Below, piece after piece: positions 7,501 to 39,300 of a stretch of DNA of 64,000 nucleotides (positions are counted from its first letter, which is position 1; the number at the start of each line of letters is the position of its first letter). A program made the position numbers and the translations under genes. The notes beneath the pieces were generated by a model. It was not told the DNA's origin. It saw only the letters and a list, made by a program, of their open reading frames with translations, and did no database searches. This DNA is from a virus (taxonomy: Duplodnaviria > Caudoviricetes), in the IMG/VR virus record IMGVR_UViG_3300031992_000052, positions 31,164 to 95,163 of that record; one strand, 5' to 3'.

Positions 7501-10500
7501 GAAGAAGGTATCGTAGAATCTTGGGGCGTATGACACTTCGCTGATAGTCTGCTTAACCTCCAGTGTCTGACGGTCTATAACGAACAGGGCCAATCCTCGT
7601 CGCAGCCCAGAGTCTGTATCGACAGCTATATCGGTATAGTCATACGTCACCGTCTGACTGCCGTTGAATATCTTCACCTGTGCACCGGGCAAAGTAACGA
7701 AGGACGGCGGATTACCGTGACCACGAAGCGAGATATAGGCGGCATCCTTTCCAGGGGCACCATCAGCGCCATCAGCTCCGTCAAGTTCTTCGTCGTTAGG
7801 CAGGTAGGCCGTGGCCGCCTCGCCACGCTCCAGCTTGGGCATACAGACATCGGCTTCCGAACCGGCGACTTCCCATGCAGGCGTTACCCAATACACATAG
7901 GTTGAGACAGAACTGTCGATAACACTTGCCGATTTGAAGGTGACGGTGTGGTACGTCCAGTCTTCATCATCCAGATTCCATCCAAAGTCCTTTATATAGG
8001 CATATTTGTTACCGTCAAGACAACGTCCCCAATCACGGTCAAAGGCTGCGTAGGGTATCGGCCCCTCGTCATCCCAATCACCAGGGTTTATGTCGAAAAA
8101 CAGTCGGCCTTTATTCCAGAATGACAAGGTATAGACGGTGGCAGGCTGCAAGATGTCATGACCAGCCCCAGTAATTTGCTGTTGTATCATCTGCCCCGAA
8201 CTCCCCGATGAGCCAAGGTGTATGTAGTTATGGCTGTCAAGACCGTTCACTACAATAGTGCCGGTATTAACATTCCACTTATCCATCTTCCCTGCCACAA
8301 ACCGCGTCTGCCGCAGCAGGTTCGGTTGCACCTCGCTGGCATCCTTGCCGTCTTGCCCGTCGTCGCCTTTGTCGCCTTTATCTCCTTTGTCGCCTTTATC
8401 ACCTTTTTCGCCGTCTGCACCGTCCTTGCCGTCGGCGCCGTTCCATACCGTTGCCGGACTCCAGCTGCCGCTTACCGTGCCATCGACCACCGTGGCCACG
8501 GAGGCGTATATGGTTGTCGGCACAACTACTTCCACCTGGCATTCATCTTTGCCGACGGCAACAGAACTGTCTTTAAAAAACCCTATGCAGATAAAGTGTG
8601 TGCCAGCCGACGGAACGAGCCTTATCGTGCCGGATGTTTCGCCGCTGTATTTGGTGTATTTTGTGTTCATGTCGCTGTCAACGGCTTCGTAATCGTCGGA
8701 CAACATCGAGTCATCATCAATATCGCCGATGACCAGATAATCATAGCCATCTTCTGTCGATACGTTTACATTAAGCACCACCGGAGCGTCACCTCCTGTT
8801 GTAAAGTAAATCATGCCCACAGAGTTGCCATCATCGCCTGGCGACGGTAATGTAATGACGTTACCGTCCAGTTGCCATGAGCCGTCTATATCGCCAAAGT
8901 CAACGCCCGGCGGCACCGAGCTCCAGCCGTTTCCAAAGTCGGTAGTGCCGGAGCCTATGCCCGTGGTTTTTGTTGGCAGTTGCGGAACAGTGTCGCTCAT
9001 CTTGTAGGCCGTCACCGTGCGTATGGTAAGACCGTCGTTGCCGTCTGCACCGTCTGCTGCAAAGTTGCCAAGTATCTTCGGTGTGGTGAACGGCCCCCAG
9101 TGCCCGCCTTCGTCGCTTGAACTGCTCGACGAGTCGCTGTCTGAGGCGTGTACATAGTCGCGGTAACTGCCGTACTCGTAGCGGTTGGTGGGGCTGACAC
9201 CCTGACGCTCGTCATACCAGCCCCGCGGCACCCATCCGTCCTGATTTTTATTGGTGTCGCTGCCGGTGGCCGCTCCCTCCGGGTTTACCTGTCCGCCGGC
9301 GATGTCTGCCGGTGCTGTTCCGTAGTCGTTGGTCGGCGTAGGCAGGAATATCCATTCGCGCTCCTTGGAGTCCTCGCCGTCGCGGACGAAGGCTACGGTC
9401 TGCCGGGCCAGTTCCTCGCTATTGCCAACCAGCCTGACGTTGACGGACTTCTGTCCGCTGAAGGCTGCCGTGGGCAGGATGGCGGTAGCCTCAGTGTATT
9501 CCTGGCTTAACACCAATAGTTCCCATTCGGCCGACCCTACCGCGGCGAAATAGATACGCAGAGTCATAGCCACTGCCTCTTCCCGTTTCAGCAACGACAT
9601 GCTGCCGTCCTGACTGGTGGCCCGGATGTTGATTGTTACGCCACCACCGGGTGTGTAATTGCCGTCCTGAGGGTTGTAACTGACAATAAAGTCGGACAAT
9701 ACCAGTGTGAGTATCTCCTTAGTCTCTGCAAGCACGTTGATGACGGCGGAGCCCAGAGGCTCGTAGACCTGAGCGCTGCTGGAGCTGCTTTCGGACGATG
9801 ACGAGCTGCTGTCGGACGAGCTGCTGGAACTGTCGGCATCGCCCCAGGCTGTGACGGTGAAGGCCGCAGACACGGCACCGCTGAAGTCGTCGCCGCTGCC
9901 GCGCTGGTGACTGAGGGTGATGCGGCCGTTGGCCATGGTGCGGCGGCCACTTGCGCCGTTCCACAGAGCGTCGGCGTTGGCGTCGCCTGTATTGCGGCTG
10001 ACGGTCCATAAGCTCACGCGGCTGTCGGCATTGGTGCTCCAGCCCTGTATCAGACTGGCCGTCAGCACGGCGGCCTTGCCCCATTTGACGTAGGGGGCGG
10101 CGTTGCCGGCATCCTCGTTGTCGATGGCGCAGGCCAGCTCTACGTGCAGCGGCAGTTCTTCGGGATTCCAGCTGACCTCCTCGTTATACTGGTCGGTGCC
10201 CAGGATGCCTGTGTCGAGGTTGACGGTACGCTGGCCGTTCTCTACGGCGCTGACCTCGCCCATGTAAATCCACCAGTGGTCGGGGTCGTCAACCGTACTC
10301 GGGAATCCCCGGCTGTCGTACTGTGTCGACAGCCCGTCCTGCATGACGAAGGAGTGCTTCACAAGCCACTCTCCCGCCAGTCCGTAGGGGTTATCCTGCG
10401 GGTACTGCTGCTTCGGCGCGAACACCAGATAGGCTTTGGAGTCGGCCACGTAGGCTTCGCTCTTCTCCAGACGGGCGTAGATGGTGTAAGGTCCGTTGCC

Positions 10501-10710
10501 GCCGGTCAGCCGCCGGTTGCGCCCCGAGAGCGTCCACTCGCGATACATGTTGGTGTTGGGATTGACGCCAAGACCAGACACCATCGGGCTGAAGACCTTG
10601 ATCTTCGCGCCGGTGGCAATGCTGACGGCCAGGTCGTTGGCTGAACCGTTGGCATTGGCGATGATACTGATGGCCGACGGGGCTATATAGTGGATGGGGG
10701 ATGTGCGCAT
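4534..10710 (-). CDS. large tail fibre / host-recognition protein
   Basis: 2058 aa with collagen-like GxD repeats, repeated NLL..PKLERG-type carbohydrate-binding-like modules, an ILEI-like domain and a TGIDI..I.L.AD tail motif. Confidence 0.75.
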   Translation of the reverse strand: MRTSPIHYIAPSAISIIANANGSANDLAVSIATGAKIKVFSPMVSGLGVNPNTNMYREWTLSGRNRRLTGGNGPYTIYARLEKSEAYVADSKAYLVFAPKQQYPQDNPYGLAGEWLVKHSFVMQDGLSTQYDSRGFPSTVDDPDHWWIYMGEVSAVENGQRTVNLDTGILGTDQYNEEVSWNPEELPLHVELACAIDNEDAGNAAPYVKWGKAAVLTASLIQGWSTNADSRVSLWTVSRNTGDANADALWNGASGRRTMANGRITLSHQRGSGDDFSGAVSAAFTVTAWGDADSSSSSSDSSSSSSESSSSSAQVYEPLGSAVINVLAETKEILTLVLSDFIVSYNPQDGNYTPGGGVTINIRATSQDGSMSLLKREEAVAMTLRIYFAAVGSAEWELLVLSQEYTEATAILPTAAFSGQKSVNVRLVGNSEELARQTVAFVRDGEDSKEREWIFLPTPTNDYGTAPADIAGGQVNPEGAATGSDTNKNQDGWVPRGWYDERQGVSPTNRYEYGSYRDYVHASDSDSSSSSSDEGGHWGPFTTPKILGNFAADGADGNDGLTIRTVTAYKMSDTVPQLPTKTTGIGSGTTDFGNGWSSVPPGVDFGDIDGSWQLDGNVITLPSPGDDGNSVGMIYFTTGGDAPVVLNVNVSTEDGYDYLVIGDIDDDSMLSDDYEAVDSDMNTKYTKYSGETSGTIRLVPSAGTHFICIGFFKDSSVAVGKDECQVEVVVPTTIYASVATVVDGTVSGSWSPATVWNGADGKDGADGEKGDKGDKGDKGDKGDDGQDGKDASEVQPNLLRQTRFVAGKMDKWNVNTGTIVVNGLDSHNYIHLGSSGSSGQMIQQQITGAGHDILQPATVYTLSFWNKGRLFFDINPGDWDDEGPIPYAAFDRDWGRCLDGNKYAYIKDFGWNLDDEDWTYHTVTFKSASVIDSSVSTYVYWVTPAWEVAGSEADVCMPKLERGEAATAYLPNDEELDGADGADGAPGKDAAYISLRGHGNPPSFVTLPGAQVKIFNGSQTVTYDYTDIAVDTDSGLRRGLALFVIDRQTLEVKQTISEVSYAPRFYDTFFDSAGIDNALAAKINALDSSVFVVLVSHDATGFNSNLVAALKGCGGSDIEHTDTWRYPFAFIGYKGLAEGYALQIQMPAEPDPGGATAPALLSAYVANGMFTTTKTGKDGADGADGTDGADGRDGLDGWTLTVNPSPLIIEQNINDGTFPFSQQHPLYISMTASRGSDNNVTVGTPTSVSNDLGLTVSPIGVNDYRLQITGYSRQSGTYKTSGKITCSVVLTDTAGNTVTMPVSISVGVNLLGEWDTKIVGDAEKSVARKITYAATGTEVETIETVGQYIRSSNENIATLTEDTNGLKTGMSEIRQTVSEISLGVEDGVQANENLIPNSLMEVTTNINASSGSKHQRTLSKLTQGNTYTLTVRGCTDHDATDNNNMLTVRVRSTDSVEKYAVVIKSEERQTESRTFTVASNKDTWVVEVYFDDEDSPGVGTATVDWIKLEEGEASTPWIPCPTDVAYRNYLTNGMAADAVLGELLPTTPITIGGTAVTNMFNGMDGYRAYSDGSNIKEVLQYLLYGTNSGQTNYAISAGQYYTLSWWSRSTCSYVVYIYGSTSGYPFIDASKGLLIDEVTRVSSPSGDASTTFGASSDYVRHTITFWTKNSFSGVCRALWRIMSGITGTLEICGMSLVRGAWERIQPFGRVFSLRPKNTTFLDSLVFSAEQPDASLVGKYLYTWAVVSAVDADEGNNTYMDVMAVNPDGDEHEMLYSGDTSADDRDYGYYDTPQGWRVLWRRYEVTTYGNDLIIGDALGNDISLSDFASLKWILESQGRVRSIWAVGVSPERKPGIREIAGELEAYQRRRTGIDIERGLINLRADRVTFSNSDGTVSGKVSIDPTKGTLITQDAVLRGNLFLPYLRLTSSNISNYTVTNFYGQDVVNLESASNNLQVEVSGITIRLPRITSDMLGCEINIFNATTGTIEINGSGVTGSSASGAYFCNLLVPSQATSLRSNSIVTLQKFRELKAKAFYHGQGGSEAYNYGWLVCYANINP

Positions 10711-10786
10711 CTTTTTATTTACGATTTACTATTTTCGATTTGCGATTTTTTTTTATAACGACAAATTATCAAAATCGGGTGCCTGG

Positions 10787-10835
10787 TCAAGGGCATGGCG
10801 CTGCCCTTGATTTTACGCTCGGATACAGACATATT
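10787..10835. promoter_or_regulatory. back-to-back pair of GCCCTTGA late-promoter-like motifs
   Basis: TCAAGGGC at 10787-10794 (-) and CTGCCCTTGA-N19-CATATT at 10801-10835 (+), between divergent tail genes. Confidence 0.6.
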
Positions 10836-10866
10836 AGGGCATAACGATATATCGGAAATCAACTGT

Positions 10867-13710
10867 ATGGAGCACTTAGCACTTGAAGTTTTTGATCTTA
10901 CGGGCACTGGCAGTCAGTATGCCTGGCTGCCTCGCAACGCCAGCATCACCATCAACGACACGAGCGGCATCTTCGGCAGCGGCGACGTGTGGAGCCACCC
11001 GTTCCGGCTGAACGTCTACGAGAACGCGGGCATCTTCGGCATCAGCGGCGACCTGCACGGTTCGCGGCTTCACGAGCAGATACACAAGCGGCGGGCCCGC
11101 CTGTGGGTGATGGGCCTGCCGCTGTTCCTGGGCTACCTGATGCTGGGCGACGAGGCAGAGGTGGACAAGGACGGCAATGTTGACGTAACGTTCGAGTCGG
11201 GACAGCACACGTTCGACGAGATGATAGAGGGAGCGAAGGCCAATCAGGTGCCTACGATAGGGGACGTGGAAATCGGTATGGCACTATGGCGTAAGCGGTG
11301 GACGCATTGCCGTGTGAAGCTGGAGGCATCGCTGAGACTGCCAAGCGGCTCCCCTTATCACGGTGCCACTCTGAGCGGCCCTGTGTATCATACGGTGAAC
11401 GGCGAATTGGCCGATGAGTTTGAGTTGTCGTGCGACGGCGAGGAAGACGGCAACAGCGTGCAGGAATACCCGCGCATGGTGTTCCCACGGGGCAGCTTCG
11501 ACAACACCGAGGAAGGCGGCGAAGGATGGAACAAGAACTGTATCAACACCAACCTGCCCTATACCGAGGACGAAGACGGCACGCCGACGAGCCCCTACTG
11601 CAACATAGCCCTCTGCTATCAGAAGTACGGTTACTTACAGACCGACAAGGACGGCAACACCAAACCCGACTACAGCGCGGAGCCGGTGGCCCAACGCGGC
11701 TACGAGTACATGCCCGCCGACCGCATTAACTCCGCGCCATGCTTCTATGTTGCCTACTGGGTGCGCTGTCTGATGACCCACCTCGGCATCCATATTGAAG
11801 AGAACCAGATGATGCAGGTGGAAGACCTGCGGCGGCTGTTCTTCGTGAACACCAACTGCGCCTATATAGAGCCGACGAAACTGCGTAGCGAAGACTACAA
11901 CGAACGGTTCGGCCGATACAAGCACGATGTCGTGGTAAACAACAGACTGCAGCGGCCGGTGCCGGAGTATGTTGACTCCGAGAAGAACATCGACAAGAAC
12001 GAAAGCGGATTCCACGGATCCAACGTCGAGATGACCGGTATCGAGAGCGATGTGTCTAACGTGTCGGTCAAGATTAGCGAGGTGATGCCATGGGATTTGG
12101 CGGAAAACTACGCCTATGGACTCAAGAACAACTACTACCATAAGGCTATCGCGTCGAGCGAGTGCTTCCCAGACGTTGACATCAGCGAGGTTATCAAGGC
12201 CATAGAAGACGGATTCGGCGTGCGCTTCCTGTTCAGCGACGACTACAGCAGGGTGCGCATCATACTGCTGCGCAACATTCTGCGCAGCGGCGACGTGCAG
12301 GACATTGCCTGTGAGATAGAGGACGAGAGCGTAAAAGTGGAGAACAGCATCCGTGGGTTCCGCATGACCTACGGCGACAACAAGGACAATACAGAGTTCT
12401 TCTATAAGGGTTTCGACGACAAGCTGCCGAAGAAGAAACCTTACTTTGTGGACGACAGCGACAAGCACGACTATTCGCACTGGGACCTGAATGCCGTATA
12501 TAGCAACATTATCAACAGGGTGTCGGCTTTCGACAAGACCTGCTATGTAACTCCGGTCACCGGCGATGCTTACGGCGTTAAGATTGACAAGGATGCGAAA
12601 CGCTACGACGAGCTGCACCCCTCGCTCTTCGAGTTTGCGGGCTACATGGATGCCATAGACGGCAACTGCACGGGAGAGGACAGCACCGTTCACACCGTTA
12701 ACGTGGGCTTTACGCCGGCCATTATGAACGACCTGAACATGACGCAGGAACGCGGCGGCGATTATCGGCAGCGGTTTGCGCTGTTTGTGGATGCTACCAT
12801 GCGCCCAAGGCGGGTCAACTACAACGATGTCAATGACTATGACAGCTTCAGCGACCCCACCGCGATATATGACACCGAGAAACTGTATGCCAAAGGTTCG
12901 CCAGCCAGGCAGATGATGGCAGGCGACGGCTTTGTCAAGCCGGGCGAGTTTGCCATCCTCTCTGACATGTATGCCGCCGCTACGGATGTAGTAGCTCTCG
13001 TGAGCGGCGTTGTGGGACTTACGCCTCTCACTGCCCACATTAAGTTCGATATGTCTGGCCACATTAACGAGGGTTACCGCCTCTATCTGCAAGATAATTA
13101 CGAGCCTAACGACGACGGCGTGTCGCCCATCGAGAAGAAGGAGTGGGGCCTGACGTTGGGTATCATGCGCGGCTCTGGCAGCGATGCCTACATAGACTAC
13201 CAGCGCGACCCGGAGGATGGCGAGAACAACGACACGTGGGACGTGATGCCGTGCGGCAGCGCAACAGCACACCCCGACACCTGCGACAACTACGGCAACC
13301 GGTGGGACTACAACGGCTCTGAATCTGGTATCGGCAATGCCGACGGACGTATCTCGCTGAAGTTGCGGGCGGAGAAGCTGAACCCGAACTTCGACCCGAC
13401 GCTGCCAGAGACGCACTACGACCAGGAACACCCGGAGCGGAATACAAACCCACGCTATCTCACCATCAGCAACCCGGCGCTGCGTCAGCGCGGGCTGGCC
13501 GATCAGTTCTACAAGGAGTACAGCTACTGGCTGCGCAACGCCCGCGTCGTACAGCAGCCGGTGAGGATGGAACTGGCACAGCTACTAACCATCGACAAGA
13601 CGAAGCGCGTGAGGGTGGGCGACATCATGGGGTTCATCCGCAAGATGCAGTACACCATCAGCAATGAGACTGGGCTGGGTAAGGTTACAATGGAGATTAT
13701 GTATATATAA
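10867..13710 (+). CDS. putative tail/baseplate structural protein
   Basis: ~947 aa from ATG 10867 (MEHLALEV). N-terminal WSHPFRL and C-terminal KRVRVGD..GFIRKMQYTI resemble Bacteroidetes phage minor tail proteins; context agrees. Confidence 0.6.
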   Translation: MEHLALEVFDLTGTGSQYAWLPRNASITINDTSGIFGSGDVWSHPFRLNVYENAGIFGISGDLHGSRLHEQIHKRRARLWVMGLPLFLGYLMLGDEAEVDKDGNVDVTFESGQHTFDEMIEGAKANQVPTIGDVEIGMALWRKRWTHCRVKLEASLRLPSGSPYHGATLSGPVYHTVNGELADEFELSCDGEEDGNSVQEYPRMVFPRGSFDNTEEGGEGWNKNCINTNLPYTEDEDGTPTSPYCNIALCYQKYGYLQTDKDGNTKPDYSAEPVAQRGYEYMPADRINSAPCFYVAYWVRCLMTHLGIHIEENQMMQVEDLRRLFFVNTNCAYIEPTKLRSEDYNERFGRYKHDVVVNNRLQRPVPEYVDSEKNIDKNESGFHGSNVEMTGIESDVSNVSVKISEVMPWDLAENYAYGLKNNYYHKAIASSECFPDVDISEVIKAIEDGFGVRFLFSDDYSRVRIILLRNILRSGDVQDIACEIEDESVKVENSIRGFRMTYGDNKDNTEFFYKGFDDKLPKKKPYFVDDSDKHDYSHWDLNAVYSNIINRVSAFDKTCYVTPVTGDAYGVKIDKDAKRYDELHPSLFEFAGYMDAIDGNCTGEDSTVHTVNVGFTPAIMNDLNMTQERGGDYRQRFALFVDATMRPRRVNYNDVNDYDSFSDPTAIYDTEKLYAKGSPARQMMAGDGFVKPGEFAILSDMYAAATDVVALVSGVVGLTPLTAHIKFDMSGHINEGYRLYLQDNYEPNDDGVSPIEKKEWGLTLGIMRGSGSDAYIDYQRDPEDGENNDTWDVMPCGSATAHPDTCDNYGNRWDYNGSESGIGNADGRISLKLRAEKLNPNFDPTLPETHYDQEHPERNTNPRYLTISNPALRQRGLADQFYKEYSYWLRNARVVQQPVRMELAQLLTIDKTKRVRVGDIMGFIRKMQYTISNETGLGKVTMEIMYI

Positions 13711-22284: not shown

Positions 22285-22448
22285 AAAAAAGGTCCCCGAA
22301 CAACTTTTCTTCATTATGTAGCATCTGACCTCTAATAATATAGCCGCTTACGACAGCAAGTTGCCCGGGGACTAAATTGTCACCCTCGTACCGCTGCCGT
22401 AAAGCGTTTGTGCTATATCAATATAGAGGTCAGATGGGTGCAAAGGTA
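22285..22448 (-). ncRNA. candidate structured small RNA with its own -7 promoter
   Basis: TACCTTTG at 22448-22441, 13-bp perfect stem 22322-22334/22424-22436 with nested stems, U6 tail at 22290-22285. Confidence 0.55.
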
Positions 22449-22482
22449 ATAAGAATATTTTAATCTTTAACATTTTTGCACG

Positions 22483-22722
22483 ATGAAAAGAATAGATTTA
22501 GTGGAATTTAACAAGGAACTGCTTCAAAAGTTGAACGAAGCGGGCATCCGATTGGAGGATTACAAGTATTGCGACTTATACCGCGACTACCTTGAATTAT
22601 CAAAAACGATGGTCACTCGCAAGGCAGTTATCCTGACGCTGGCCGAGCGTCATCATATCAGCGACAGACAAGTTTATAACATCTTGCACCACCTTGAAAT
22701 GTCAGTAAACAGAAGACATTGA
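22483..22722 (+). CDS. small HTH DNA-binding protein
   Basis: C-terminal LAERHHISDRQVYNIL helix-turn-helix. Confidence 0.7.
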   Translation: MKRIDLVEFNKELLQKLNEAGIRLEDYKYCDLYRDYLELSKTMVTRKAVILTLAERHHISDRQVYNILHHLEMSVNRRH

Positions 22723-22798
22723 AACCGCCACTTCACGGATGAACCGTAGGCTTCGGGTGATATGCTTTCATTCACTTCATAATCAAGTGATTAGTGAA

Positions 22799-22806
22799 TA
22801 ACTTTG
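22799..22806 (+). promoter_or_regulatory. Bacteroidetes -7 promoter element
   Basis: TAACTTTG, 75 nt upstream of ATG 22882. Confidence 0.55.
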
Positions 22807-22881
22807 CCCGTGGGTTCGGATTTCCCGACCCGCGAGTTAATTCACATTATTATTCACAACCAACACAAACACTTTACAACA

Positions 22882-23961
22882 ATGAGTGACATGAAAGTTT
22901 TCTCTATTCCCGACTCGAACGGCGGCAATGGAGGTAATGCGCTTGCCAACGGCATCGTGCCCTTCATGCTCGGTGCGGGCATGAGCGGTGGTCTCGGTGG
23001 CTTCGGCTTCGGTGGCTACGGTGGCTACAACATGATGAACATGAACAACATCACTGAGTTGTTCGCCATGGGCATCCTGGCCAGCATGTTCGGCTGGAAC
23101 GGCAACGGCGGCTTCGGCGGCATGGGTGGAGCCAACGGCGTAGGATTCCTTGCCAACCAGTTGAACAACGACAACGGGCGTGACCTCATCATGCAGGCCG
23201 TCACTTCGCAGGGCGAACAGGCACGCACGGCCACCCAGACGCTGAGCACCATGCTCGGTCAGGACTTCAACCTCGTCAACAGCGGCATCCAGCTCATCCA
23301 GAGCTCGCTGTCAAGCATCGCTGCCCAGCAGGGCATGACCCCGCTGCAGATCATCAACAGCATCCAGGCAGGCAACGCAGCCCTGAGCCAGCAGCTCTGT
23401 CAGTGCTGCTGCGACAACAAGTTCGCTATCGCCGAACAGACCTCGCAGCTCCAACAGGGCATGAACACTGGCTTCAACGGTGTGCAGATGGGGCTGAACC
23501 AGGGCTTCAACGGTGTGGAGCGCGGACTCTCTGGCATCCAGACGCAGATGGCGCTCAACGCAGGCAAGGACGAGCTGGCCACCTGTCAGCAGACCTACAC
23601 CCTCACCGACGGCGCCAACCGCAATACGCAGGCCGTTCTGGCCAAGCTCGACGCCATGCAGACCCAGGCACTGCAGGACAAACTCGATGCTGCCCGCGAG
23701 AAGAACACGCAGCTGGCCGGCGAGATTTCGCAACTGAACCAGAACCAGTACATCGCTGGTGTGGTCGGTCAGACGATGGCTCCCGTAAACGCACAACTCG
23801 CAGCCCTGAACAAGGAGGTGGACGATATCAAGTGCAAGCTGCCTAACACGGTGAACGTGCAGTACCCGAACCTGGTGGCTGTCAACGCTACGCCCTACGT
23901 CAGCGGCGGCATCTATCCTAACGGAATGTTTGGCGGCTACGGCGGTAACTACGGTTTCTAA
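22882..23961 (+). CDS. Gly/Asn/Gln-rich protein with hydrophobic N-terminus, CQCCC motif and coiled coil
   Basis: 359 aa from ATG 22882; phage-like codon usage; function unknown. Confidence 0.85.
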   Translation: MSDMKVFSIPDSNGGNGGNALANGIVPFMLGAGMSGGLGGFGFGGYGGYNMMNMNNITELFAMGILASMFGWNGNGGFGGMGGANGVGFLANQLNNDNGRDLIMQAVTSQGEQARTATQTLSTMLGQDFNLVNSGIQLIQSSLSSIAAQQGMTPLQIINSIQAGNAALSQQLCQCCCDNKFAIAEQTSQLQQGMNTGFNGVQMGLNQGFNGVERGLSGIQTQMALNAGKDELATCQQTYTLTDGANRNTQAVLAKLDAMQTQALQDKLDAAREKNTQLAGEISQLNQNQYIAGVVGQTMAPVNAQLAALNKEVDDIKCKLPNTVNVQYPNLVAVNATPYVSGGIYPNGMFGGYGGNYGF

Positions 23962-23977
23962 CGGAAGGAGGTGAGCT

Positions 23978-24322
23978 ATGGCATGTAACATTAACATTCC
24001 AACTAATCAGGGCGGCATACCATACCTGCAGTCCACCAACACCACCGTTGGCACAACGGCTGTAGACATCGCCCTCGGCTTCAACCGCCGACCGCTGCCG
24101 CCCGTGGGTTACTTCACCGTGCGTCTCACCGATGCCATCCCTGCCGGAACCACGACCACGCTGCCCGTCACGCTGACCCGCAACGGCCAGACACGCCAGC
24201 TCACGCTCTTTGACGGCACGCCCGTCACGGTGGCTGAGCTGATTGGCGGCACCGGCGTGTTCCTCGTGTTCAACGACGCAGGCAATGGCATCCTCCAACT
24301 GATGAGCCGCACCGTCGTCTAA
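23978..24322 (+). CDS. hypothetical beta-rich protein
   Basis: 114 aa with GGAGG upstream. Confidence 0.75.
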   Translation: MACNINIPTNQGGIPYLQSTNTTVGTTAVDIALGFNRRPLPPVGYFTVRLTDAIPAGTTTTLPVTLTRNGQTRQLTLFDGTPVTVAELIGGTGVFLVFNDAGNGILQLMSRTVV

Positions 24323-24385
24323 TCTTCCGCAGGCTGCGGAAACTCCGCAGCCTGCTATTAACCAACACAAAAAAAGTAAAACAAC

Positions 24386-24943
24386 ATGGATTTCCAAAGT
24401 CTAAAGCAGGGTTCTCCCATCTATATCCTTCAGGAAGGCGGCACCGAACCACAACTTACCGTTGCAACGGTGGCCAACAAGCCAGAACCAAAGCCAATGT
24501 ATATGACACAGACACCTGGTGCAACGCCCGGTATCTATGCCGGCACGAACATGATGCAGCCCGTCGTGGAGATTGTGGTCCACATGGGTAATGAGGACGT
24601 CCCGTTCTCCAACCTTTCTCCGACAGCTTCGACAGCCACGTACAACAACGGACAGACTACTATCAGTTGCACGACTGAAGGCATGCTGCCCGCCGTCGAT
24701 GCAATGATGCAGAAGGCCAGAAAGCGCATCGAGGAACGGCCCTACGACGATGCGGTGATGGCGAAAGGTAAAGAGTTCCTGATGTCGCTCAACCCCCGCT
24801 ATAAAGAGGAGGAAGAGCAGAAGCAGGACATCGCCAACCTGAAAGGACAGATGGGCGACGTGGTAAACACCATGAACACCATGATGTCCATGATGCAGGA
24901 TCTTAACAAGAAGATTTCCGGCACCTCGCCGAAGGGCAAGTAG
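24386..24943 (+). CDS. hypothetical protein with Met-rich C-terminal coiled coil
   Basis: 185-aa ORF with A-rich leader. Confidence 0.8.
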   Translation: MDFQSLKQGSPIYILQEGGTEPQLTVATVANKPEPKPMYMTQTPGATPGIYAGTNMMQPVVEIVVHMGNEDVPFSNLSPTASTATYNNGQTTISCTTEGMLPAVDAMMQKARKRIEERPYDDAVMAKGKEFLMSLNPRYKEEEEQKQDIANLKGQMGDVVNTMNTMMSMMQDLNKKISGTSPKGK

Positions 24944-25006
24944 AAGTCCGTGTGCCGTGCGGTTCTGCCGCACGGATAGTAATAACCCTTTAATTCAGCA
25001 ACGACT

Positions 25007-25345
25007 ATGATTTTCGGAATAGAATTTCGTGACGAGCAAGACAAGCGCGAGCTCGTCGAACTGGCACAGACAGCCAAGGAAAACGTCTGTGACCTGTGGG
25101 AGAAGTTGGCCGAGCACATTCCCGAGCTCCAGCAGATCCAGGAGCGTGGTGGCCGCTATCGCGGCGGCTACGGCATGGGATGGCAGGGCAATGTTGGCTA
25201 CCGTAACTACGGTGGCGGTACCAACTACCGCGAAGGCTATCCTCAGCACATGATGGGTGGCTATGACCCAGCTATGGGAGGCTACGGCCCAACGTTCCGC
25301 GAGAACCCCGCCTATACCGGCGGCGGTGACCGTCGCGGTTACTAA
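25007..25345 (+). CDS. hypothetical protein with G/Y/R-rich low-complexity tail
   Basis: 112 aa; RGGRYRGGYG..YGGG. Confidence 0.75.
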   Translation: MIFGIEFRDEQDKRELVELAQTAKENVCDLWEKLAEHIPELQQIQERGGRYRGGYGMGWQGNVGYRNYGGGTNYREGYPQHMMGGYDPAMGGYGPTFRENPAYTGGGDRRGY

Positions 25346-25355
25346 TTCTCCCCTT

Positions 25356-25416
25356 GGGCGGGTGCCGGTGCCCGGCGTTTCTCCGCCGGGACAATCCCGC
25401 CGCCCGCCCGTTTTTA
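25356..25416 (+). terminator. GC-rich stem followed by a T tract
   Basis: GGGCGGG...CCCGCCC-GTTTTT. Confidence 0.5.
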
Positions 25417-25470
25417 TTATCCTAATGTCCCGTATGCTGCGCATTGTCGCAGTCCTAAAAAAGAAAGAAT

Positions 25471-25881
25471 ATGCACCAGTACGATATAATTCCAGAGGAG
25501 CTTAGAAAGTATCTCGCTCAGTTTGGTAAACACTTCAATAAAAAGCTCTGCGACTATGCCGTCTCCCTCATGATGAAGGCCGGCCCCGACGGCAAGCCCG
25601 TCCGCATCACCCCAATGACTCGCGAGGAAGTAGAAACTCTCCTGAAAACCCACGGCGTAGAACTGAAGAACAACGTCCTCTACGATCACGTGTTCGTCGC
25701 CAACATGGTAAAGTCCGACCAGCTCGGCTCCAGTATCGTCGACGCGAAGCATCACGCCCTCGCCATCAAAGACTACATCGACGATGTAGACAAGGCCGAA
25801 GGCTATCTCTTCGACCGCTGGATGTCAGACCTCTGTGGTCTCGGCCCCCATTACCTCCCATACTGGGAAGACATGATTTAA
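25471..25881 (+). CDS. conserved-type hypothetical phage protein
   Basis: 136 aa; GKHFNKKLCDYAVSLM..YDHVFVANMVKSD..WEDMI. Confidence 0.8.
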   Translation: MHQYDIIPEELRKYLAQFGKHFNKKLCDYAVSLMMKAGPDGKPVRITPMTREEVETLLKTHGVELKNNVLYDHVFVANMVKSDQLGSSIVDAKHHALAIKDYIDDVDKAEGYLFDRWMSDLCGLGPHYLPYWEDMI

Positions 25882-25920
25882 CGTTCAGTAAACGGCGGTA
25901 GTACCGCCGCCCCATTCACT

Positions 25921-26316
25921 ATGACCCGCGACTACTTAGACATAGACCGTCATTGGGGCATTCTTGCCTATTATGACGTCATCCCCTCCGACTTCGACCA
26001 GCTCGGCCCAATCCTCCGTGAGTTCTCCTGCCCCGAACAGGAGATAGAGAAAGCATGGCAAACCATCCACTACACCAACAAGGCATTCATTTTTAATGTC
26101 CCCTGGGCACGCATGTCCGTCCTTGTTGTCGGTCACGTCACTCACCCCTCGCAGTTCCTCAACTCCCTTCTGCACGAATTTGACCACCTGCAGGACGCCA
26201 TCCTGAAATACTACGACGTACCCCACGGTACCGAAGACGCAGCCTACCTCCAGGGCTACCTCGGTCAGGTGGCCTACGACGGCATCCTGCCGCTCATCTG
26301 TCCCGTCTGCCCTTGA
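25921..26316 (+). CDS. HExxH-motif putative metallopeptidase
   Basis: LLHEFDHL followed by EDAAYLQGY. Confidence 0.65.
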   Translation: MTRDYLDIDRHWGILAYYDVIPSDFDQLGPILREFSCPEQEIEKAWQTIHYTNKAFIFNVPWARMSVLVVGHVTHPSQFLNSLLHEFDHLQDAILKYYDVPHGTEDAAYLQGYLGQVAYDGILPLICPVCP

Positions 26317-29932: not shown

Positions 29933-31753
<1,821 letters not shown>

Positions 31754-33394: not shown

Positions 33395-36300
33395 CTACAG
33401 GTACTTCTCGCCGTGCCTTTGCGCCTCCTTCTGCATCTTGTTATACATAGCCGGGATGCCGTCGCTGCCCGTCCATTTGTTGACGGCCTTGATGCCGTTC
33501 ACGAGGGCGCTCTCCAGGAGGTCGCTCTGGCGGTCGATGCTGGCCTGCAGCGAGGCAAGCATCTCGATGCTCATGCCGCCCGTTCCCTCAGCCGTCAGCC
33601 CTCCGCCATCAGCCATCTCCTCGAACTCCCCGATGTTGCCGTCGGCAAAGGCTCTCACGCCAGTGCCGCGACGGCGGCGGGTGCTCAGCCCCGCGATGCT
33701 GCCGCCGTTGTAGAGCGTCTGTATGTCGCGCCAGATGCCGGTCTCGTTCATCTGCAGCAGGCGGGTGGTCTTGGCGTCGATGATCGCCTCTCGCCCTGCC
33801 TCGCCCACGAGGTGGAACTCCGGCCCGTTGGTGATGTGCGTCTTGGCGTCCTTGCCCATGTACTTTGCGCGGTAGGTCTTGCCGTCGGCCCCGTCCACGT
33901 TGTACTGTCTGCCAGGTGTCAGCGAAGCAGGGTCGGTCAGCTCGTTCACGTTACCCTCTGCGTAGGTCAGCATACCCGTGGAGAGGCGGCCAGCACCTAC
34001 CGATGCGCCGGTGGCTTGGGCGATCTCCGACTTCGACTTGGCAATCTTCGACGTAGCCAGTCCCATCAGTCCGCCGATAAGGGCGGTGAATACGCCGACG
34101 GCCACAGGGCCACCGATAGGACCGAGTTCTTTCAGCGTCTTTGATATCCACGAAGGAGCATTGGCAGCAGTCTCACCCGTCGATGCAGCCATTGATGCGG
34201 TCAGCATCGAGATAGCGGCCTGACCAGCTGCCTGCACAATCATCATCTGAACCTTCTGCGACGTGTCGAGGTTGTCGTTGCTCATTGTTTGGTAAGCAAT
34301 GCCGTACATGTTTGCGGCGGCAGTCATGGCGGCAAACGACGATTTGTTGGTCTTTACCATCTGCTGGTCGTTCTGCTGCTCGCTCTTCTTCACCATCTCC
34401 TGAGCCTGCATCTTCGCTTGGGCGGTCTCGGTACTTGCGGCGATCTCCTTCTGCTTCAGTGCGTCCAGTTTCTCACCCGTAGCCTCTATCTGTTCGTCGG
34501 TGATGGATAGCGGCGACGGTACGTACCCTGGCAATTCAGTCAGCATCTCAGTCTTCTCTGTCTCGGCAGCGATAGCCTGCTCCTTATATGTCTGCCACAG
34601 CAGCCCCATGTTCTCCTGACTCTTGGCTACTTCCTCGTCGGTCATCTGCCAAGGGGCTTTCGGAACACCCTCGCCGCTCGGCGTTTCGCCCGTTGGCTGT
34701 ACGGGAGCGATAATCTGTCCCTGCTCGTCCACGGCGAATCCCTCGGCATTGCGCTTGTAGCCGTCGCCTGAACCGCTGCCGCCCGCTGCGCCCATTGAGG
34801 CATAGAGCGCTTCGGTGTTCTTGATGACCGCCTGTGTGTTGGCATCAATGACAGAGTTCTGCAACAGGGCGTTGAGCTGGTCGGTGATGGTTTCGCTCAT
34901 CTTCATGTTGATGTCGTCCCAGAGTTTCTTCCACGCCTCGGCCTGGGCGTTTTGCACTTCTATCTCATGCTGCCTTTCCAGTGCCTGGCTCTCGTCCAGA
35001 TATTCATAGTGCGCCTTTGCGTCGCTGGTGCCTGCATCGTCTATCACCACGTAGGTGCCGGCTCCGGGGCCGCCTTTGCCCGTCAAGTCCAACTTCGCCC
35101 GCTCGTTGTAATACTCCGCGTCACCCGCATGGCTCGCCTCGAATACTCCCTGCAGCGAGCTTGTCAGCAGGTCGGCCCACTCCTTCAGTTCGGTGTACAG
35201 GCGGTTTTGCGATTCCTCCGTGCGGGCAATAATCTCCTCGCGCTGCTTGGCCAGTTCGGTCTCCTCCTTGGCCAGCGAGAGGTTGAGCGACATCTGGGCG
35301 TGCTTGGCATCCAGCCGCAGACGTTCGGCTTCGTTGGTCTTGCCCTCATCCTCGCGCAACTTGGCTTCACGCAGCAGGTCATCGACGCGCTGCTGTCCCG
35401 TCTTGCGTACCAGGTTGTAGTAGTGCTCCTGCATCCGCAGTTGCAGTTGCAGTTGCTTGATGGCCAGTTTGTCGGCCACGCGCTCCGAGGCCACCCCTGC
35501 ACCTATCAGGTTGTTGGCGCGGCTCACGCTGCTCTGCTGCACGCCCAGGGCGCTGATGGCTGCCTCGTAGGTGGCCTTCATGCTCTTGCCGTTGGGCAGT
35601 ATGGCGTCGTTCCATGCGATGTCCACCTGCTTCTTCACCTGCGAGGCTTCCTTCTTGATGGCATCCTGAACCTGGTCGTACACCTCATGCAGCTGTGCTA
35701 TGATGGCCCGCTTCTCCTTGTCGGCGTTCTCGCTATTGATGATGGCGTCTGCCCATGAGCCAAGCCCGTTCTTGCGCATGTCCTCGGCCAGCTGGTCGAA
35801 GGTCAGGCTGTAGGCGTTCTCTGCCTCCTTCAGCAGGAATGTCAGTCGCTTGGTGTTCTCCTCCATGAACTTGCCGTCCTCGGGCACGCCGTCCTTGAAC
35901 AGCAGCCCCATCTTCGTCAGGTTGTTCTGCAGGTTGTCCGTGATGCCGTTGAACGGGCGCTCCTTGGCGATGATGGCCTCTATCTCCTTCAGTTGCTTCA
36001 CAACGATGGCCTGCATGGCGGTCAGGTCTTTCTGCGCCTCGCGGTTGTTATACTTGCGGTCGCGCTCCCAGGCGGCAATCCACTCGGCCTCGATGGCCGT
36101 CCACGACACCTCGTCGAGTTCCTTGACCGATGCCCACCACTGGCGGAACTGCTGAATGAACTGCTTGTCCTCGCTGGTGAACGTCTGGCGCAGTTCCGAC
36201 CGCTTCGTCAGGTGCTCCTGCTCCAGCGCATCCAGCCGGCGGTTATACTCCGCCTCGGTCATCTGCTCGTTGGCGCGGGCTTCCTCTATCAGTTCCTTGC

Positions 36301-39300
36301 GCTCCGAGTAGTAGCGGTCCAGTTCGGCAATGGCTCCCTCGCTCTCCGGGGTCTTGGGTTTCTTCTTCGACCTGCCGCCTTTCTCAGGGTTCTTCCAGTC
36401 GCCTGTCGGTGTCAGGTTACGGGCATCAAGCTCCTCCTGAATCTTCAGTCGCTCCTCGTTGTACCAGGCTATGGCGTCGCGCATGTTCTTGATACCCTTG
36501 CGGGTGGCTTCGTCCATGAACTTCTTATCCATCGACAGGACTTTCTGTACATCGGCACCGCCAGCCAAGGCACGCACACGCTCCAGCATCTCCTTGCGGC
36601 GCTTCACCAGGGCGTTGGCATCCCACTGCTCGTAGGGGTCAACACGCTTGTCGTAGTTGCCGTAGGGGCCACGGTGGTTGAGAGGGTCGTCGTTATCGTT
36701 GTTATTGTTGTTGTAATTGTTATTACCTACGTCTTGATTAACTCGCTGCCTTTGTGTCTCGCGCGTCTGACTTAGGCGGTTCTGATCAATAGACGGCATT
36801 ATCATCCAAGGGAGGTAAGCAGACTGAGCGTCTTTGACAGTTGGTTGCGGCAGGAGTGGAACTTGGATTTCCTTTGGCGTTGGGGCGTTTCTTAATTCTT
36901 CTGCAAGGGTCTGCAGTCCGTTAATTGCTCCAGCCAGGTTTTCGTAGGCTTTGGCGATGTCCTCTTCTGAAGAGTTGACAGCCGTAATAACTTTTACAGC
37001 CCTTTCTCCTTGTTCCTTAAAATTGTTTATCATTTCCTGCGTATCTTCGACACGCCTCTTTTCTGCCGACGATATCTGAGCATTGATGTCTTCTGATGCC
37101 TTTCCTATCTCTTTGGTCATTTCAAGATAGGTTTTCGTGTATTCTGTTCTGAAGTTCTTGATAGTATTACCTACCCAGCCCCATTCACCTGACATACGAG
37201 ATCCAACACCCGTAATGTTAGGTAACAAACCCGTTTCTGTGATTTGTGGAAAAGTTTCCTCCAGATATTTATATACCCATGTAGCAATCAAAACCTCTGC
37301 GTTCTCGGATGCTTCTTTCGGATTGTCCACACCTTTCGACTGAAGATACTGTTCAATCTTGTTAGGGTCGATAGCATCCGTAGGAATTTGGAAGGAATCG
37401 GAGTTGGGATTATAACTGATTTGCCTGAGTGTTTCCTTGATGTCGTTCCTGGCACGGGCAATCTGCTCGGCACTCAGGCCAGCGTCGCGTAAATCATCAA
37501 CAAAACCAATCCACTCTTCCGCCAGATTCTCACTGTAGTGCTCCTTTACCCTCGACTCTACCTGCGTTTTTTCCCTTTGCAACATCTCTGCTTCGAGGGC
37601 AGCAGCTATACGCTCGTGCGCTAACGCCACAAGGTTAGAGTTCTCAGCGTCAGTCAGTAAGAAGCCAAGATACTGACTGTACTTCTGATTGATTTCGTTC
37701 ATCAGATTCTTACGCTTCTCCATATTGCCGTATGCAGCATAGTACGATTTTACGAGTTTGTCAAGTTTGTCTTTTTCCTCGTCAATCTTAGCATTCAATT
37801 CCTCAACCGCTTTCGTGGAAATGTCAACTTCTCCAACCCATGTTGACAAAGCATAGACAGCATAAAGAATAGCCGTCGCCAGAGCCATCCATATATTGGC
37901 CATCATTTCCTTGTTGAGCGCCTTCGTAGCCATCTTGGCCCTTATCGTTGCCACACTTTGTGCTGCTGTTGCTCTTTCCGCCTCGGTCATAGCAGCAGCC
38001 TCTGCTAACTTGGCATTACGGAGGGACTTGCTAAGCATTATATACTCTTGCGTATTTGCTATTAGTCCCTTCAGACCAGTGCCCATAGCCTTCAGTCCGC
38101 TTATAGACTTAAAGAAGATACCCTCGCCAAGACCAATTTTCAAGAGGCCCCAATAAACGATAAATGTTTTCAAAAGAACTGAAACGGCTTTCAGCGCAGG
38201 GCTCACATTGCCTGACAGCAGATTCACTAATCCGCGCAAAAGATCGATGATGACGCCGAGGGCTCTCTGCGCTTCATCTCCAATCCACATTTCTTCAAAC
38301 TCATTTTTCAGCCGCTCCCACTTTGCCGCCGTCGTCTCGTTCATCTTGTCGAACTCCTGCTGTATGGCAATATTCTCCTCATACGCCTCGCTGGCTACGC
38401 CCAATTGTCTTTCCAGCTCCTCAACATTCTGACTCAGGCCTGCGAACACAATACCTGCACGGGCACCCTGCTGGTTCAGTTCCTTCATTATGTCCTGGAA
38501 ACCGGCAGCCTCCATCATTTTCTCCACCTTGTCGGCCACGCCGTCTGCATCGTTTTCAATGCCTTCTGCCGTGATGCCGCTACGCTCGCGGATGGCCTTG
38601 AACAGGTCGATGATGACGGTCATGCCCTGCCCCTCAGCAAAGCGTCGCTTGATGTCCTCTTCGGTTTTCCCAATAATTGCGCCTATCTCGTAAGCGTTAT
38701 TCCTGATAGCCGGAATCATTCGCGACAGGGCAGTAGCAGACATCTCAACTCTCATACCCAGGCTGCTGATCGTCGAACCCAGTGCGGCCACCTGGTCGAT
38801 GGTGATGCCGCTCTGTGCGCCCACGGCTCCCACGCGCTTCACGAGGTCGGTGATTTCGGGGGCGGTCGAAGCACTCGTGGCACGCAGACGGTCGATGGTC
38901 GATGCAATCTTCTCCATGGCGACGGCCGTTGCCGACGAGCCCTCGATGGTGCCCTCCTGCAACTGCTTGCGTATCTTGTCCACCTCGCCCGTGGCGATGG
39001 CCACACGCATCATCTCCGTAGCGGCCTCGCGTCCCATTTCGGGCAGGGCAATCATCAGTTTGTTTGCAGCCTCGGTGAAGCCCTGCACGTCCTCCAGGGT
39101 CTTCAAGCCCAGCTGTCCGGCACTGGCGGAAATTTCCATGAGTGAGGTCAAACTGGTCCTGACGTCCATTTTCTTCAGGTTCTCCGACAGGCGCCCCACC
39201 TCGTCGGCGGTGAAGCCCGTGGTCTTGCGCACCTCACCCATGCGGTCGGAGAGGTCCATGAGGTCGCGGGCGGTGTTGCTCACCTTCTGCCACAGTTCGT

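Follow-up and report, generated by a model that had tools for sequence, protein, structure and literature searches.

We analyzed a 64,000-nucleotide stretch of a Caudoviricetes contig (IMG/VR record IMGVR_UViG_3300031992_000052, positions 31,164 to 95,163; the whole stretch is called the window here, and positions are counted from its first letter) and found that six of its small genes, named g2 to g7 (22882-26316), travel as a unit, in a single order, across unrelated Bacteroidales phage backbones that include crAss-like phages, long-tailed phages, and prophages. This cassette is a real, autonomous, mobile, and optional unit. As to its function, our first choice, held tentatively, is that g2-g7 form a portable accessory operon made in lytic growth and building an optional fibre-like assembly, which we rank first because it is the sole reading with direct structural support.

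A portable and optional six-gene cassette

Seven open reading frames (ORFs), g1 to g7, are present in this block, all on the plus strand. The first, g1 (22483-22722), encodes 79 residues with a C-terminal helix-turn-helix (HTH). The cassette proper begins with g2 (22882-23961), whose 359-residue product heads it, and continues with g3 (23978-24322; a 114-residue beta protein), g4 (24386-24943; a 185-residue Met-rich protein), g5 (25007-25345; 112 residues, beginning with an amphipathic helix and having a low-complexity Arg/Gly/Tyr tail), g6 (25471-25881; a 136-residue DUF7841 protein), and g7 (25921-26316; 131 residues, with an HExxH motif and a downstream Glu). The true start of g2 is the ATG at 22882, which leaves a 75-nt CA-rich leader; the TTG at 22804 that had been listed as its start falls within a promoter box, TAACTTTG, at 22799-22806.

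A first-pass annotation of this DNA had proposed a six-gene module that recurs in gut phages, and both the co-oriented module and its recurrence in the g2-g7 order across gut-phage loci are confirmed. Using g2 as seed, we found 40 viral loci in which genes for g3, g4, a g5-type protein, g6, and g7 follow in order wherever the contig permits, down to a g2 identity of 35%. An independent search seeded with g6 in 185,579 species genomes returned 35 loci, mostly phage contigs binned into metagenome-assembled genomes, with g2, g4, and g6 in the same order in 28 of them. The carriers span 29-56% G+C. Two of them are cultured: C3_41T2LP, a phage of Bacteroides uniformis MB20-41, has g2, g4, g6, and g7, with an unrelated 180-aa gene between the first two and a 77-aa gene between g4 and g6, and PD691P3, one of the PD691P phages of Parabacteroides distasonis (its host strain is DA691), encodes a short g2-like protein that retains the CCC motif described below, together with g4-like and g6-like genes. 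In the crAss-like phage cr109_1, gp65 is g6-like, gp64 g2-like, gp63 g3-like, and gp62 g4-like, and the isolate Paraprevotella clara YIT 11840 also carries the cassette (L062; L with a number denotes a compared locus or contig). With its order kept over this range of base composition, its movement between unrelated backbones, and two cultured carriers, the cassette is a tractable target.

The families are large. That of g2 comprises 3714 clusters (90% identity, E <= 0.001), none of them named and none with a Pfam family, and DUF7841 comprises 931 clusters at 50% identity; among the best 150, almost every one is a stand-alone protein of ~100-160 aa. These unnamed clusters come from gut and rumen and include those of crAss-like phages, the most abundant human gut viruses. 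Four IMG/VR contigs of 2.6-2.8 kb (L023, L026, L031, and L034; ~30% G+C, 12-14 in-frame TAG codons) correspond exactly to the cassette. Their ends do not overlap, and we therefore rejected the idea that they are circles; they derive, as fragments, from phages with low G+C and TAG recoding. Assembly seems to stop at the borders of the cassette, which would be expected if several phages that occur together shared the same cassette.

Close relatives differ in whether they carry the cassette. A search seeded with the capsid gene of this phage gave three relatives with the cassette beside the capsid gene, as here, one with the cassette ~9 kb off (L085), and one other with the cassette ~45 kb off. 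In the complete relatives G052, G053, and G055 (145, 128, and 144 kb), g2 was found nowhere, and the same search found it once in each of four positive controls. The slot bounded by homologues of g1 and of g8, the gene that follows g7, holds a different conserved cassette of eight small genes in L086, L089, L093, and L094, which are relatives without g2-g7 (L089 13767-17417, minus strand). Its head protein has a basic N-terminal end, a clear transmembrane (TM) helix, a coiled coil, and a Cys/Gly tail, and it also encodes a Cys-rich 157-aa protein and a 3-TM protein. Homology of the alternative head and Cys-rich proteins to g2 and g3 is undetectable, and the last gene is weakly g6-like (hhalign 35%). 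Because this alternative cassette fills the g1-g8 slot in relatives, g8 is part of the backbone, the cassette is g2-g7, and g1 belongs to the slot or accompanies both payloads. The presence of an alternative in the same slot points to selection for variety.

The claim that the module has its own HTH regulator thus holds in part. g1 does precede g2, and its homologues lie 5' of g2 in nine or more viral loci; they also head the alternative cassette in the four contigs above, and unrelated small genes, one with a DnaA-type HTH, occupy the g1 position in other lineages. The small upstream genes of L062, C3_41T2LP, and L060 were tried as g1 homologues and showed no homology. g1 itself matches phrog_17790 (E 1.6e-16) and, weakly, the late transcriptional activator family phrog_836 (E 0.016), and its Pfam HTH matches all fall below the cut-off. 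We regard g1 as a candidate regulator of the cassette slot.

Protein features and a fibre-like reading

The structural support for a fibre comes from g3. Its AlphaFold2 (AF2) model is all-beta (predicted local distance difference test [pLDDT] 83.6), as had been predicted from the sequence, and residues 214-338 of the Pa193 tail fibre protein gp47 are its only stand-out match in the PDB (Foldseek E 0.048; VIA Z 6.1, with a root-mean-square deviation of 4.0 over 103 residues, the next match being at Z 2.9). In BFVD, the model has 28 matches at E <= 1e-3, its own family first, and the named matches outside that family are mostly tail fibre, receptor-binding, and tail proteins (E 1e-4 to 5e-3). 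At the sequence level, g3 matches phrog_31654 (E 1.5e-12). These findings argue, with moderate strength, that the modelled g3 has a fold of the tail-fibre or receptor-binding-domain type, the kind of beta fibre/knob domain that marks an accessory fibre. The BFVD entry A0A8S5LXP6, a 294-aa crAss-like protein annotated as DUF7841-containing, also matches the g3 model (TM 0.67 over 98 columns); it may be a g3-g6 fusion, which would tie these two proteins together.

In the fibre-like assembly that we favour, g2 would oligomerise via a long coiled coil, stapled by disulfides or metal at its CCC cluster, and g3 and g4 would bind it as knob and adaptor. Assembly would be helped by the remaining proteins, g5, g6, and g7, the last of them acting as a processing peptidase. 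Attachment to the virion or the cell envelope would be generic, by way of the sticky Gly/aromatic ends of g2, and g1 would tune the promoter. The product, dispensable for particle assembly, would alter adsorption or the interaction with the host surface, and an optional fibre of this kind would bear on the host range and persistence of gut phages. Optional fibres are well known: the lambda Stf/Tfa side fibres, T4 fibritin (wac), and the phi29 head fibres gp8.5 are dispensable for assembly, made late, and often chaperone-dependent, and they are coiled-coil or beta-structured and encoded near tail-fibre genes. The cassette resembles them in that the modelled g3 fold occurs in tail fibres. It differs from them in showing no sequence relation to Stf/Tfa, fibritin, or gp8.5, in the hydrophobic Gly/aromatic N-terminal end and CCC motif of g2, and in being a six-gene unit with a metallopeptidase motif and its own host-type promoter.

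Several points weigh against a fibre. Members of these families are not known from any virion proteome or structure, and in crAss001, a phage with a solved virion, the first 50 kb, where the structural genes lie, contain no homologue. A fibre has to dock, yet no neighbouring gene stays with the cassette as it passes between unrelated backbones. The Pa193 match of g3 is moderate (the Z of 6.1 given above), and the matched chain is itself a fitted AlphaFold model. A hydrophobic Trp/Phe-rich stretch between Gly runs, as found in g2, is unusual in fibres, and the cassette here uses a host-type promoter box, not the GCCCTTGA motif of the virion genes. Finally, the clear TM helix of the alternative head protein and its 3-TM partner point to the envelope.

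The composition of g2, g4, and g5 and the motif of g7 are as first described. g2 consists of a Gly/Asn/Met-rich N-terminal end (residues 1-110; G 25%, N 14%, M 10%), a long Q/N-rich coiled coil with a CQCCC motif in a Q/A/L-rich middle part, and a Gly/Tyr/Phe tail (G 24%, Y 15%). Its Cys residues are at 173, 175, 176, and 177 (CQCCC), 235, and 318, and C175, C176, and C177 are invariant or nearly so across homologues. The hydrophobic N-terminal segments that had been noted in g2 are present but weak and of small extent, with a Kyte-Doolittle score of 1.3 in the best 19-residue window (0.8-1.8 in relatives), and the position of the stretch is conserved. g2 matches phrog_16490 (E 1.6e-35) and, in Pfam, only coiled-coil-type noise; g2-type coiled-coil proteins carry the annotation label 'viral fiber' in other records. 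g4, which has 17 Met in its 185 residues, matches phrog_28898 (E 1.6e-18), and its homologues include proteins of C3_41T2LP (E 1e-55), cr109_1 (gp62, E 1e-17), and PD691P3 (E 2e-5). A coiled coil that carries a conserved LNP motif makes up its C-terminal part, and its N-terminal half looks strand-rich by eye. g6 is a member of the Pfam family DUF7841 (PF25223; E 1.5e-21, 77.2 bits against a gathering cut-off of 25.2), its homologues carry the same precomputed family, and it matches phrog_38431 (E 8.1e-32). A g6-g7 fusion was sought in a 247-aa relative and not found.

For g7, the AF2 model (pLDDT 94.3) consists of a beta sheet and two long helices carrying the HExxH motif and a Glu, a third-ligand-type residue that lies 16 residues after HExxH. 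W12, H85, E86, H89, E105, and G112 are invariant in 19 homologues. HExxH with a Glu on the next helix, here family-wide, is the motif of zincins (gluzincins), which g7 also resembles in having two long helices packed on a beta sheet. It differs from them in lacking a Pfam peptidase family (no match at E <= 1, PF18818 included), a fold match above background (Foldseek against the PDB gave nothing at E <= 0.001, and the best wide VIA match, Z 4.8, is to unrelated proteins), and a match in PDB profile searches; it has no PHROG family either. g7 is homologous (hhalign 99.7%) to a C3_41T2LP gene annotated as PolyVal metallopeptidase, a label that we could not reproduce for that homologue since PF18818 is absent at E <= 0.1. 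g7 is therefore best called a candidate small zinc peptidase.

No signal peptide, lipobox, hydrophobic segment, or other export signal was found in g3-g7. Against PDB sequences, neither single-protein queries nor profiles of g2, g3, g4, g6, and g7 gave more than sub-threshold coiled-coil matches (viral fusion proteins, SNAREs, and Vipp1), which we discounted as composition noise, and ESM Atlas searches with g2 and g3 returned their own unnamed clusters or nothing. The paper collection that we searched contained nothing on C3_41T2LP, PD691P3, DUF7841, or T5.077, a phage T5 protein considered below.

As judged from sequence features, a self-assembling multi-protein product, as first suggested, is plausible because the cassette combines a CCC-bearing coiled coil, tails of the Gly/aromatic and of the Arg/Gly/Tyr type, and a small protein in which a metallopeptidase motif occurs. 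Such tails could also be read as those of an intracellular scaffold or condensate: the g2 ends, together with the g5 tail, would bring about phase separation or gelling in the cytoplasm, where factors for assembly or replication would become enriched. The sticker-and-spacer composition of the g2 ends and of the g5 tail (G 32%, Y 15%, R 11%) fits this idea, as does the lack of export signals in g3-g7. g5 matches neither a PHROG nor a Pfam family; its sequence drifts fast, yet a small protein of equal layout persists at the same position in most loci, which also speaks for a condensate. We nevertheless consider a condensate very unlikely: its basis is composition, it leaves the fibre-type fold of g3 unexplained, and conservation in the cassette is highest where the proteins are folded (the CCC-bearing coiled coil of g2, and g3, g6, and g7), whereas the low-complexity parts vary or are missing, the head proteins of PD691P3 and T5 having no such tail.

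Promoter, hairpins, and timing of expression

The cassette was first described as having a host-type promoter, and this is upheld. The TAACTTTG box at 22799-22806 (plus strand), a -7 box of the Bacteroidota sigma-A type, is the sole exact copy in the window. In 20 of 28 other loci, the pattern TAnnTTTG recurs 57-87 nt 5' of the start of g2, and it is underrepresented in the window (8 copies against 15.6 expected). Because of this recurrence, we take the TAnnTTTG box upstream of g2 to be functional, beyond chance, and TAACTTTG, on these sequence grounds, to be the cassette promoter, of the type used by host RNA polymerase. The motif GCCCTTGA is, in contrast, enriched in the window (9 copies against 2.2 expected; none of 100 shuffles reached 9). 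Its copies are at 10787, 10803, 14840, 26309-26316, 29872, 31812, 33239, 43756, and 45301, most of them on the coding strand and just 5' of genes for fibre, head, or tape-measure proteins, and it is probably a phage late-promoter or activator site. The six-gene block had been said to lack it. This is right for the interior of the cassette, but the copy at 26309-26316 overlaps the g7 stop codon, where it precedes and would serve g8.

The three intergenic hairpins noted at first are real. The one 3' of g3 (24329-24355) is a 12-bp perfect stem without a U-tract (dG -25.5, z -6.5), the one 3' of g4 (24955-24975) has a 9-bp stem, and the one 3' of g5 (25356-25416) is long and GC-rich (stem 25356-25409, z -4.0, regional dG ~-50). 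This last hairpin looks like a terminator or attenuator within the operon because UUUUU directly follows its stem, and RNA contigs are sparser beyond it, which is a weak hint. An inverted repeat at 22806-22837, right after the -7 box (dG -17.4, z -2.9), could be an operator or an mRNA 5' stem. Similar stems occur in some relatives (z -4.2 in L008 and -2.7 in L019) and not in all; a conserved structure of the 5' untranslated region was dropped since RNAalifold gave no consensus and single folds were significant in some loci only. A near-consensus -7 box with one mismatch, CATTTTTG, lies in the 22471-22485 region. Because it ends 4 nt before the start codon of g1, the g1 mRNA may be leaderless or nearly so. 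TACCTTTG stands at 22441-22448 on the opposite strand and is directed away from g1.

A promoter and terminator-like hairpins of its own, together with variable carriage among close relatives, are features of morons and other accessory units. This speaks for another possibility, that the cassette is a moron for superinfection exclusion, defence, or host-surface change, which would be expressed from its own promoter (in lysogens where the carrier is temperate) and would target incoming phages or the receptor. Two temperate carriers bear on it. In L024, an integrase gene comes right after g7, and in L060, on a 275-kb Bacteroides contig, the cassette stands at a prophage end, 460 bp before the host asnA gene. 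The g1-g8 slot with its alternative cassettes resembles the variable cassette hotspots known from P2/P4, and a mini-operon of equal layout in the early region of phage T5 has its own promoter and terminator. The likeness to morons and hotspots thus extends to promoter box, hairpins, variable carriage, slot alternative, and prophage-end position. Classic morons are one or two genes expressed from a prophage, whereas the cassette has six, and six structural-looking proteins are many for exclusion; similarity to named families is also lacking.

Timing weighs against a moron as well. Expression in lysogens, which the first-pass annotation had put forward, is unsupported for this phage: neither a tyrosine integrase nor a serine recombinase was found in the 95-kb contig, and these and an rve transposase were likewise not found in five complete relatives of 122-142 kb. 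Moreover, cr109_1 restricts its in-frame TAG codons to the late block on the plus strand, between the terminase and the virion polymerase genes, with almost none in replication genes. The cassette homologues lie inside this recoded block, which has to be translated with a suppressor tRNA that the phage itself supplies, and no gene in the genome is denser in TAG than gp62. Cassette genes of seven further contigs contain 7-14 in-frame TAG. Recoded codons mark the structural and lysis genes of Crassvirales (PMC10136315). The host-type box is uninformative on lysogeny because host RNA polymerase likely transcribes crAss-like late genes (PMC10136315). In sheep rumen metatranscriptome contigs (four runs from two samples), g2-g5 have modest cover and the capsid region is far deeper; RNA-contig depth cannot rank genes, and the pattern, which fits lytic activity, is a weak hint only. 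We judge a moron unlikely, although a role in exclusion or conversion may apply because temperate carriers exist (L024 and L060).

Neighbouring genes and setting

Lysis genes adjoin the cassette in at least six lineages: they touch it in L013, L030, L038/L039, PD691P3, and cr109_1 and are <=3.7 kb away in L018. In L013, the genes right after it (9769-11530) encode a holin-like protein of 98 aa with two TM segments, an endolysin of 273 aa, and a protein of 207 aa that has an N-terminal lipobox and a TM helix at its C-terminal end, the layout of the last, as predicted from sequence, being that of a unimolecular spanin. The neighbours are a LysB-like gene, a hol-like gene, and an endolysin gene in L030, and a holin-like gene and a phrog_435 endolysin gene in L038. 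PD691P3 has holin, endolysin, and spanin-like genes directly 3' of its g6-like gene, and cr109_1 has a holin gene and a LysB-like gene directly before the cassette. In the lineage of the present phage, an Amidase_2 endolysin gene is 20-80 kb from the cassette, which is thus not located in a lysis cassette here. Tail-fibre genes are found 5' of the cassette in several genomes, among them Paraprevotella clara, where the preceding gene encodes a Phage_fiber_rpt protein. In PD691P3, the cassette comes after genes for large proteins that lack annotation and are presumed to belong to the tail, and in cr109_1 it sits between tail and virion genes. These positions speak for a fibre. Fibre and lysis genes are the usual neighbours at the ends of late operons, and because of this, adjacency alone cannot separate a fibre from a lysis function. 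In the Paraprevotella clara element, a Fic/DOC-family gene (L062 5279-6427) stands between the tail-fibre gene and the cassette.

The lysis neighbours suggest an envelope stalk linked to lysis or egress, which would modulate envelope breakdown or release. g2 would then be a type II inner-membrane protein with a short cytoplasmic N-terminal end, one hydrophobic helix, and a periplasmic Cys-bearing coiled coil, its Gly/aromatic tail reaching the wall or outer membrane, and the soluble g3-g7 would join it, endolysin-like, once the holin opens the membrane. Besides the adjoining holin, endolysin, or spanin-like genes in several lineages, this idea draws on the basic residues before the hydrophobic stretch in T5.077, the PD691P3 protein, and the alternative head protein, on the conserved cysteines, which fit an oxidising compartment, and on the enrichment of recoded TAG in lysis genes (PMC10136315). 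The clear TM head protein of the alternative cassette keeps it alive. Among spanins, whether two-component (lambda Rz/Rz1) or unimolecular (T1 gp11), g2 recalls an i-spanin in its layout of N-terminal hydrophobic stretch, coiled coil, and conserved cysteines, and holin/endolysin genes often adjoin. Yet g2 is two to three times longer, it has no lipoprotein partner (g3 is without signal peptide or lipobox), and several carriers hold separate spanin candidates, which in L013, L030, and PD691P3 already stand beside the endolysin. In addition, the endolysin is far off in this lineage, the hydrophobic window of g2 (0.8-1.8) is short, g3-g7 have no signal peptide or hydrophobic segment, complete relatives manage without the cassette, and the fibre-type fold of g3 is left unexplained; adjacency to lysis genes also fits a fibre. 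On balance, we find an envelope stalk improbable.

A broader proposal, that both interchangeable cassettes belong to a new class of Bacteroidota phage envelope machine, appears doubtful to us. It would consist of a membrane-anchored, Cys-stapled stalk of coiled coil, joined by soluble partners and served by a small zinc peptidase of its own, and would act at the cell surface in infection, egress, rival exclusion, or receptor masking, with the cassettes as 'alleles' under arms-race selection. An envelope or exclusion device, if true, would be a new kind of phage-host interface in Bacteroidota.

The T5 mini-operon mentioned above, T5.077-T5.079 (L083 3065-4672, which is phage T5 38064-39671), has a similar architecture. 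T5.077 (321 aa) resembles g2 in its charged N-terminal end, Gly-flanked hydrophobic stretch, Q/A-rich coiled coil, ECCCE motif, and 'KLP' near the end. Two small proteins follow it, one Q-rich (138 aa) and the other Cys-rich (64 aa). T5.077 differs from g2 in belonging to PHROG 8119, with a weak local match to phrog_16490 (E 0.007, 17 bits) and a noise-level match to the g2 profile, and the T5 unit has no relatives of g3, g4, g6, or g7. We dropped homology between T5.077 and g2, the layout being the same and the match weak and local only.

The 95,163-bp viral contig that contains the window has no bacterial flanks and a CheckV completeness of 80%; the close relatives of this phage in IMG/VR are 122-142 kb. 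The runs that bear its sequence are sheep, goat, and cattle gut samples. A DNA-level search of the cassette block against a phage collection gave zero matches, as did tblastn with the capsid gene. The cassette is directly 3' of a diversity-generating retroelement (DGR), which comprises Avd (phrog_3206) and a reverse transcriptase. Head genes lie 3' of the cassette on the opposite strand and encode an S49 protease with a coiled-coil tail and a 469-aa probable capsid protein, and replication genes are at the far right of the window. A 3240-aa ORF (33395-43117, minus strand) matches tape-measure families (phrog_28, E 8.5e-16; phrog_167, E 3.3e-15); a genuine tape measure of this size would imply an extremely long tail. 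At 30200-30233, RNA-contig depth rises up to 946, against 25-66 alongside, in all four RNA runs, and dozens of RNA contigs have loose ends exactly at 30200/30201 and 30232/30233. This segment resembles a 32-nt element within the protease gene that is common to many other transcripts or genomes.

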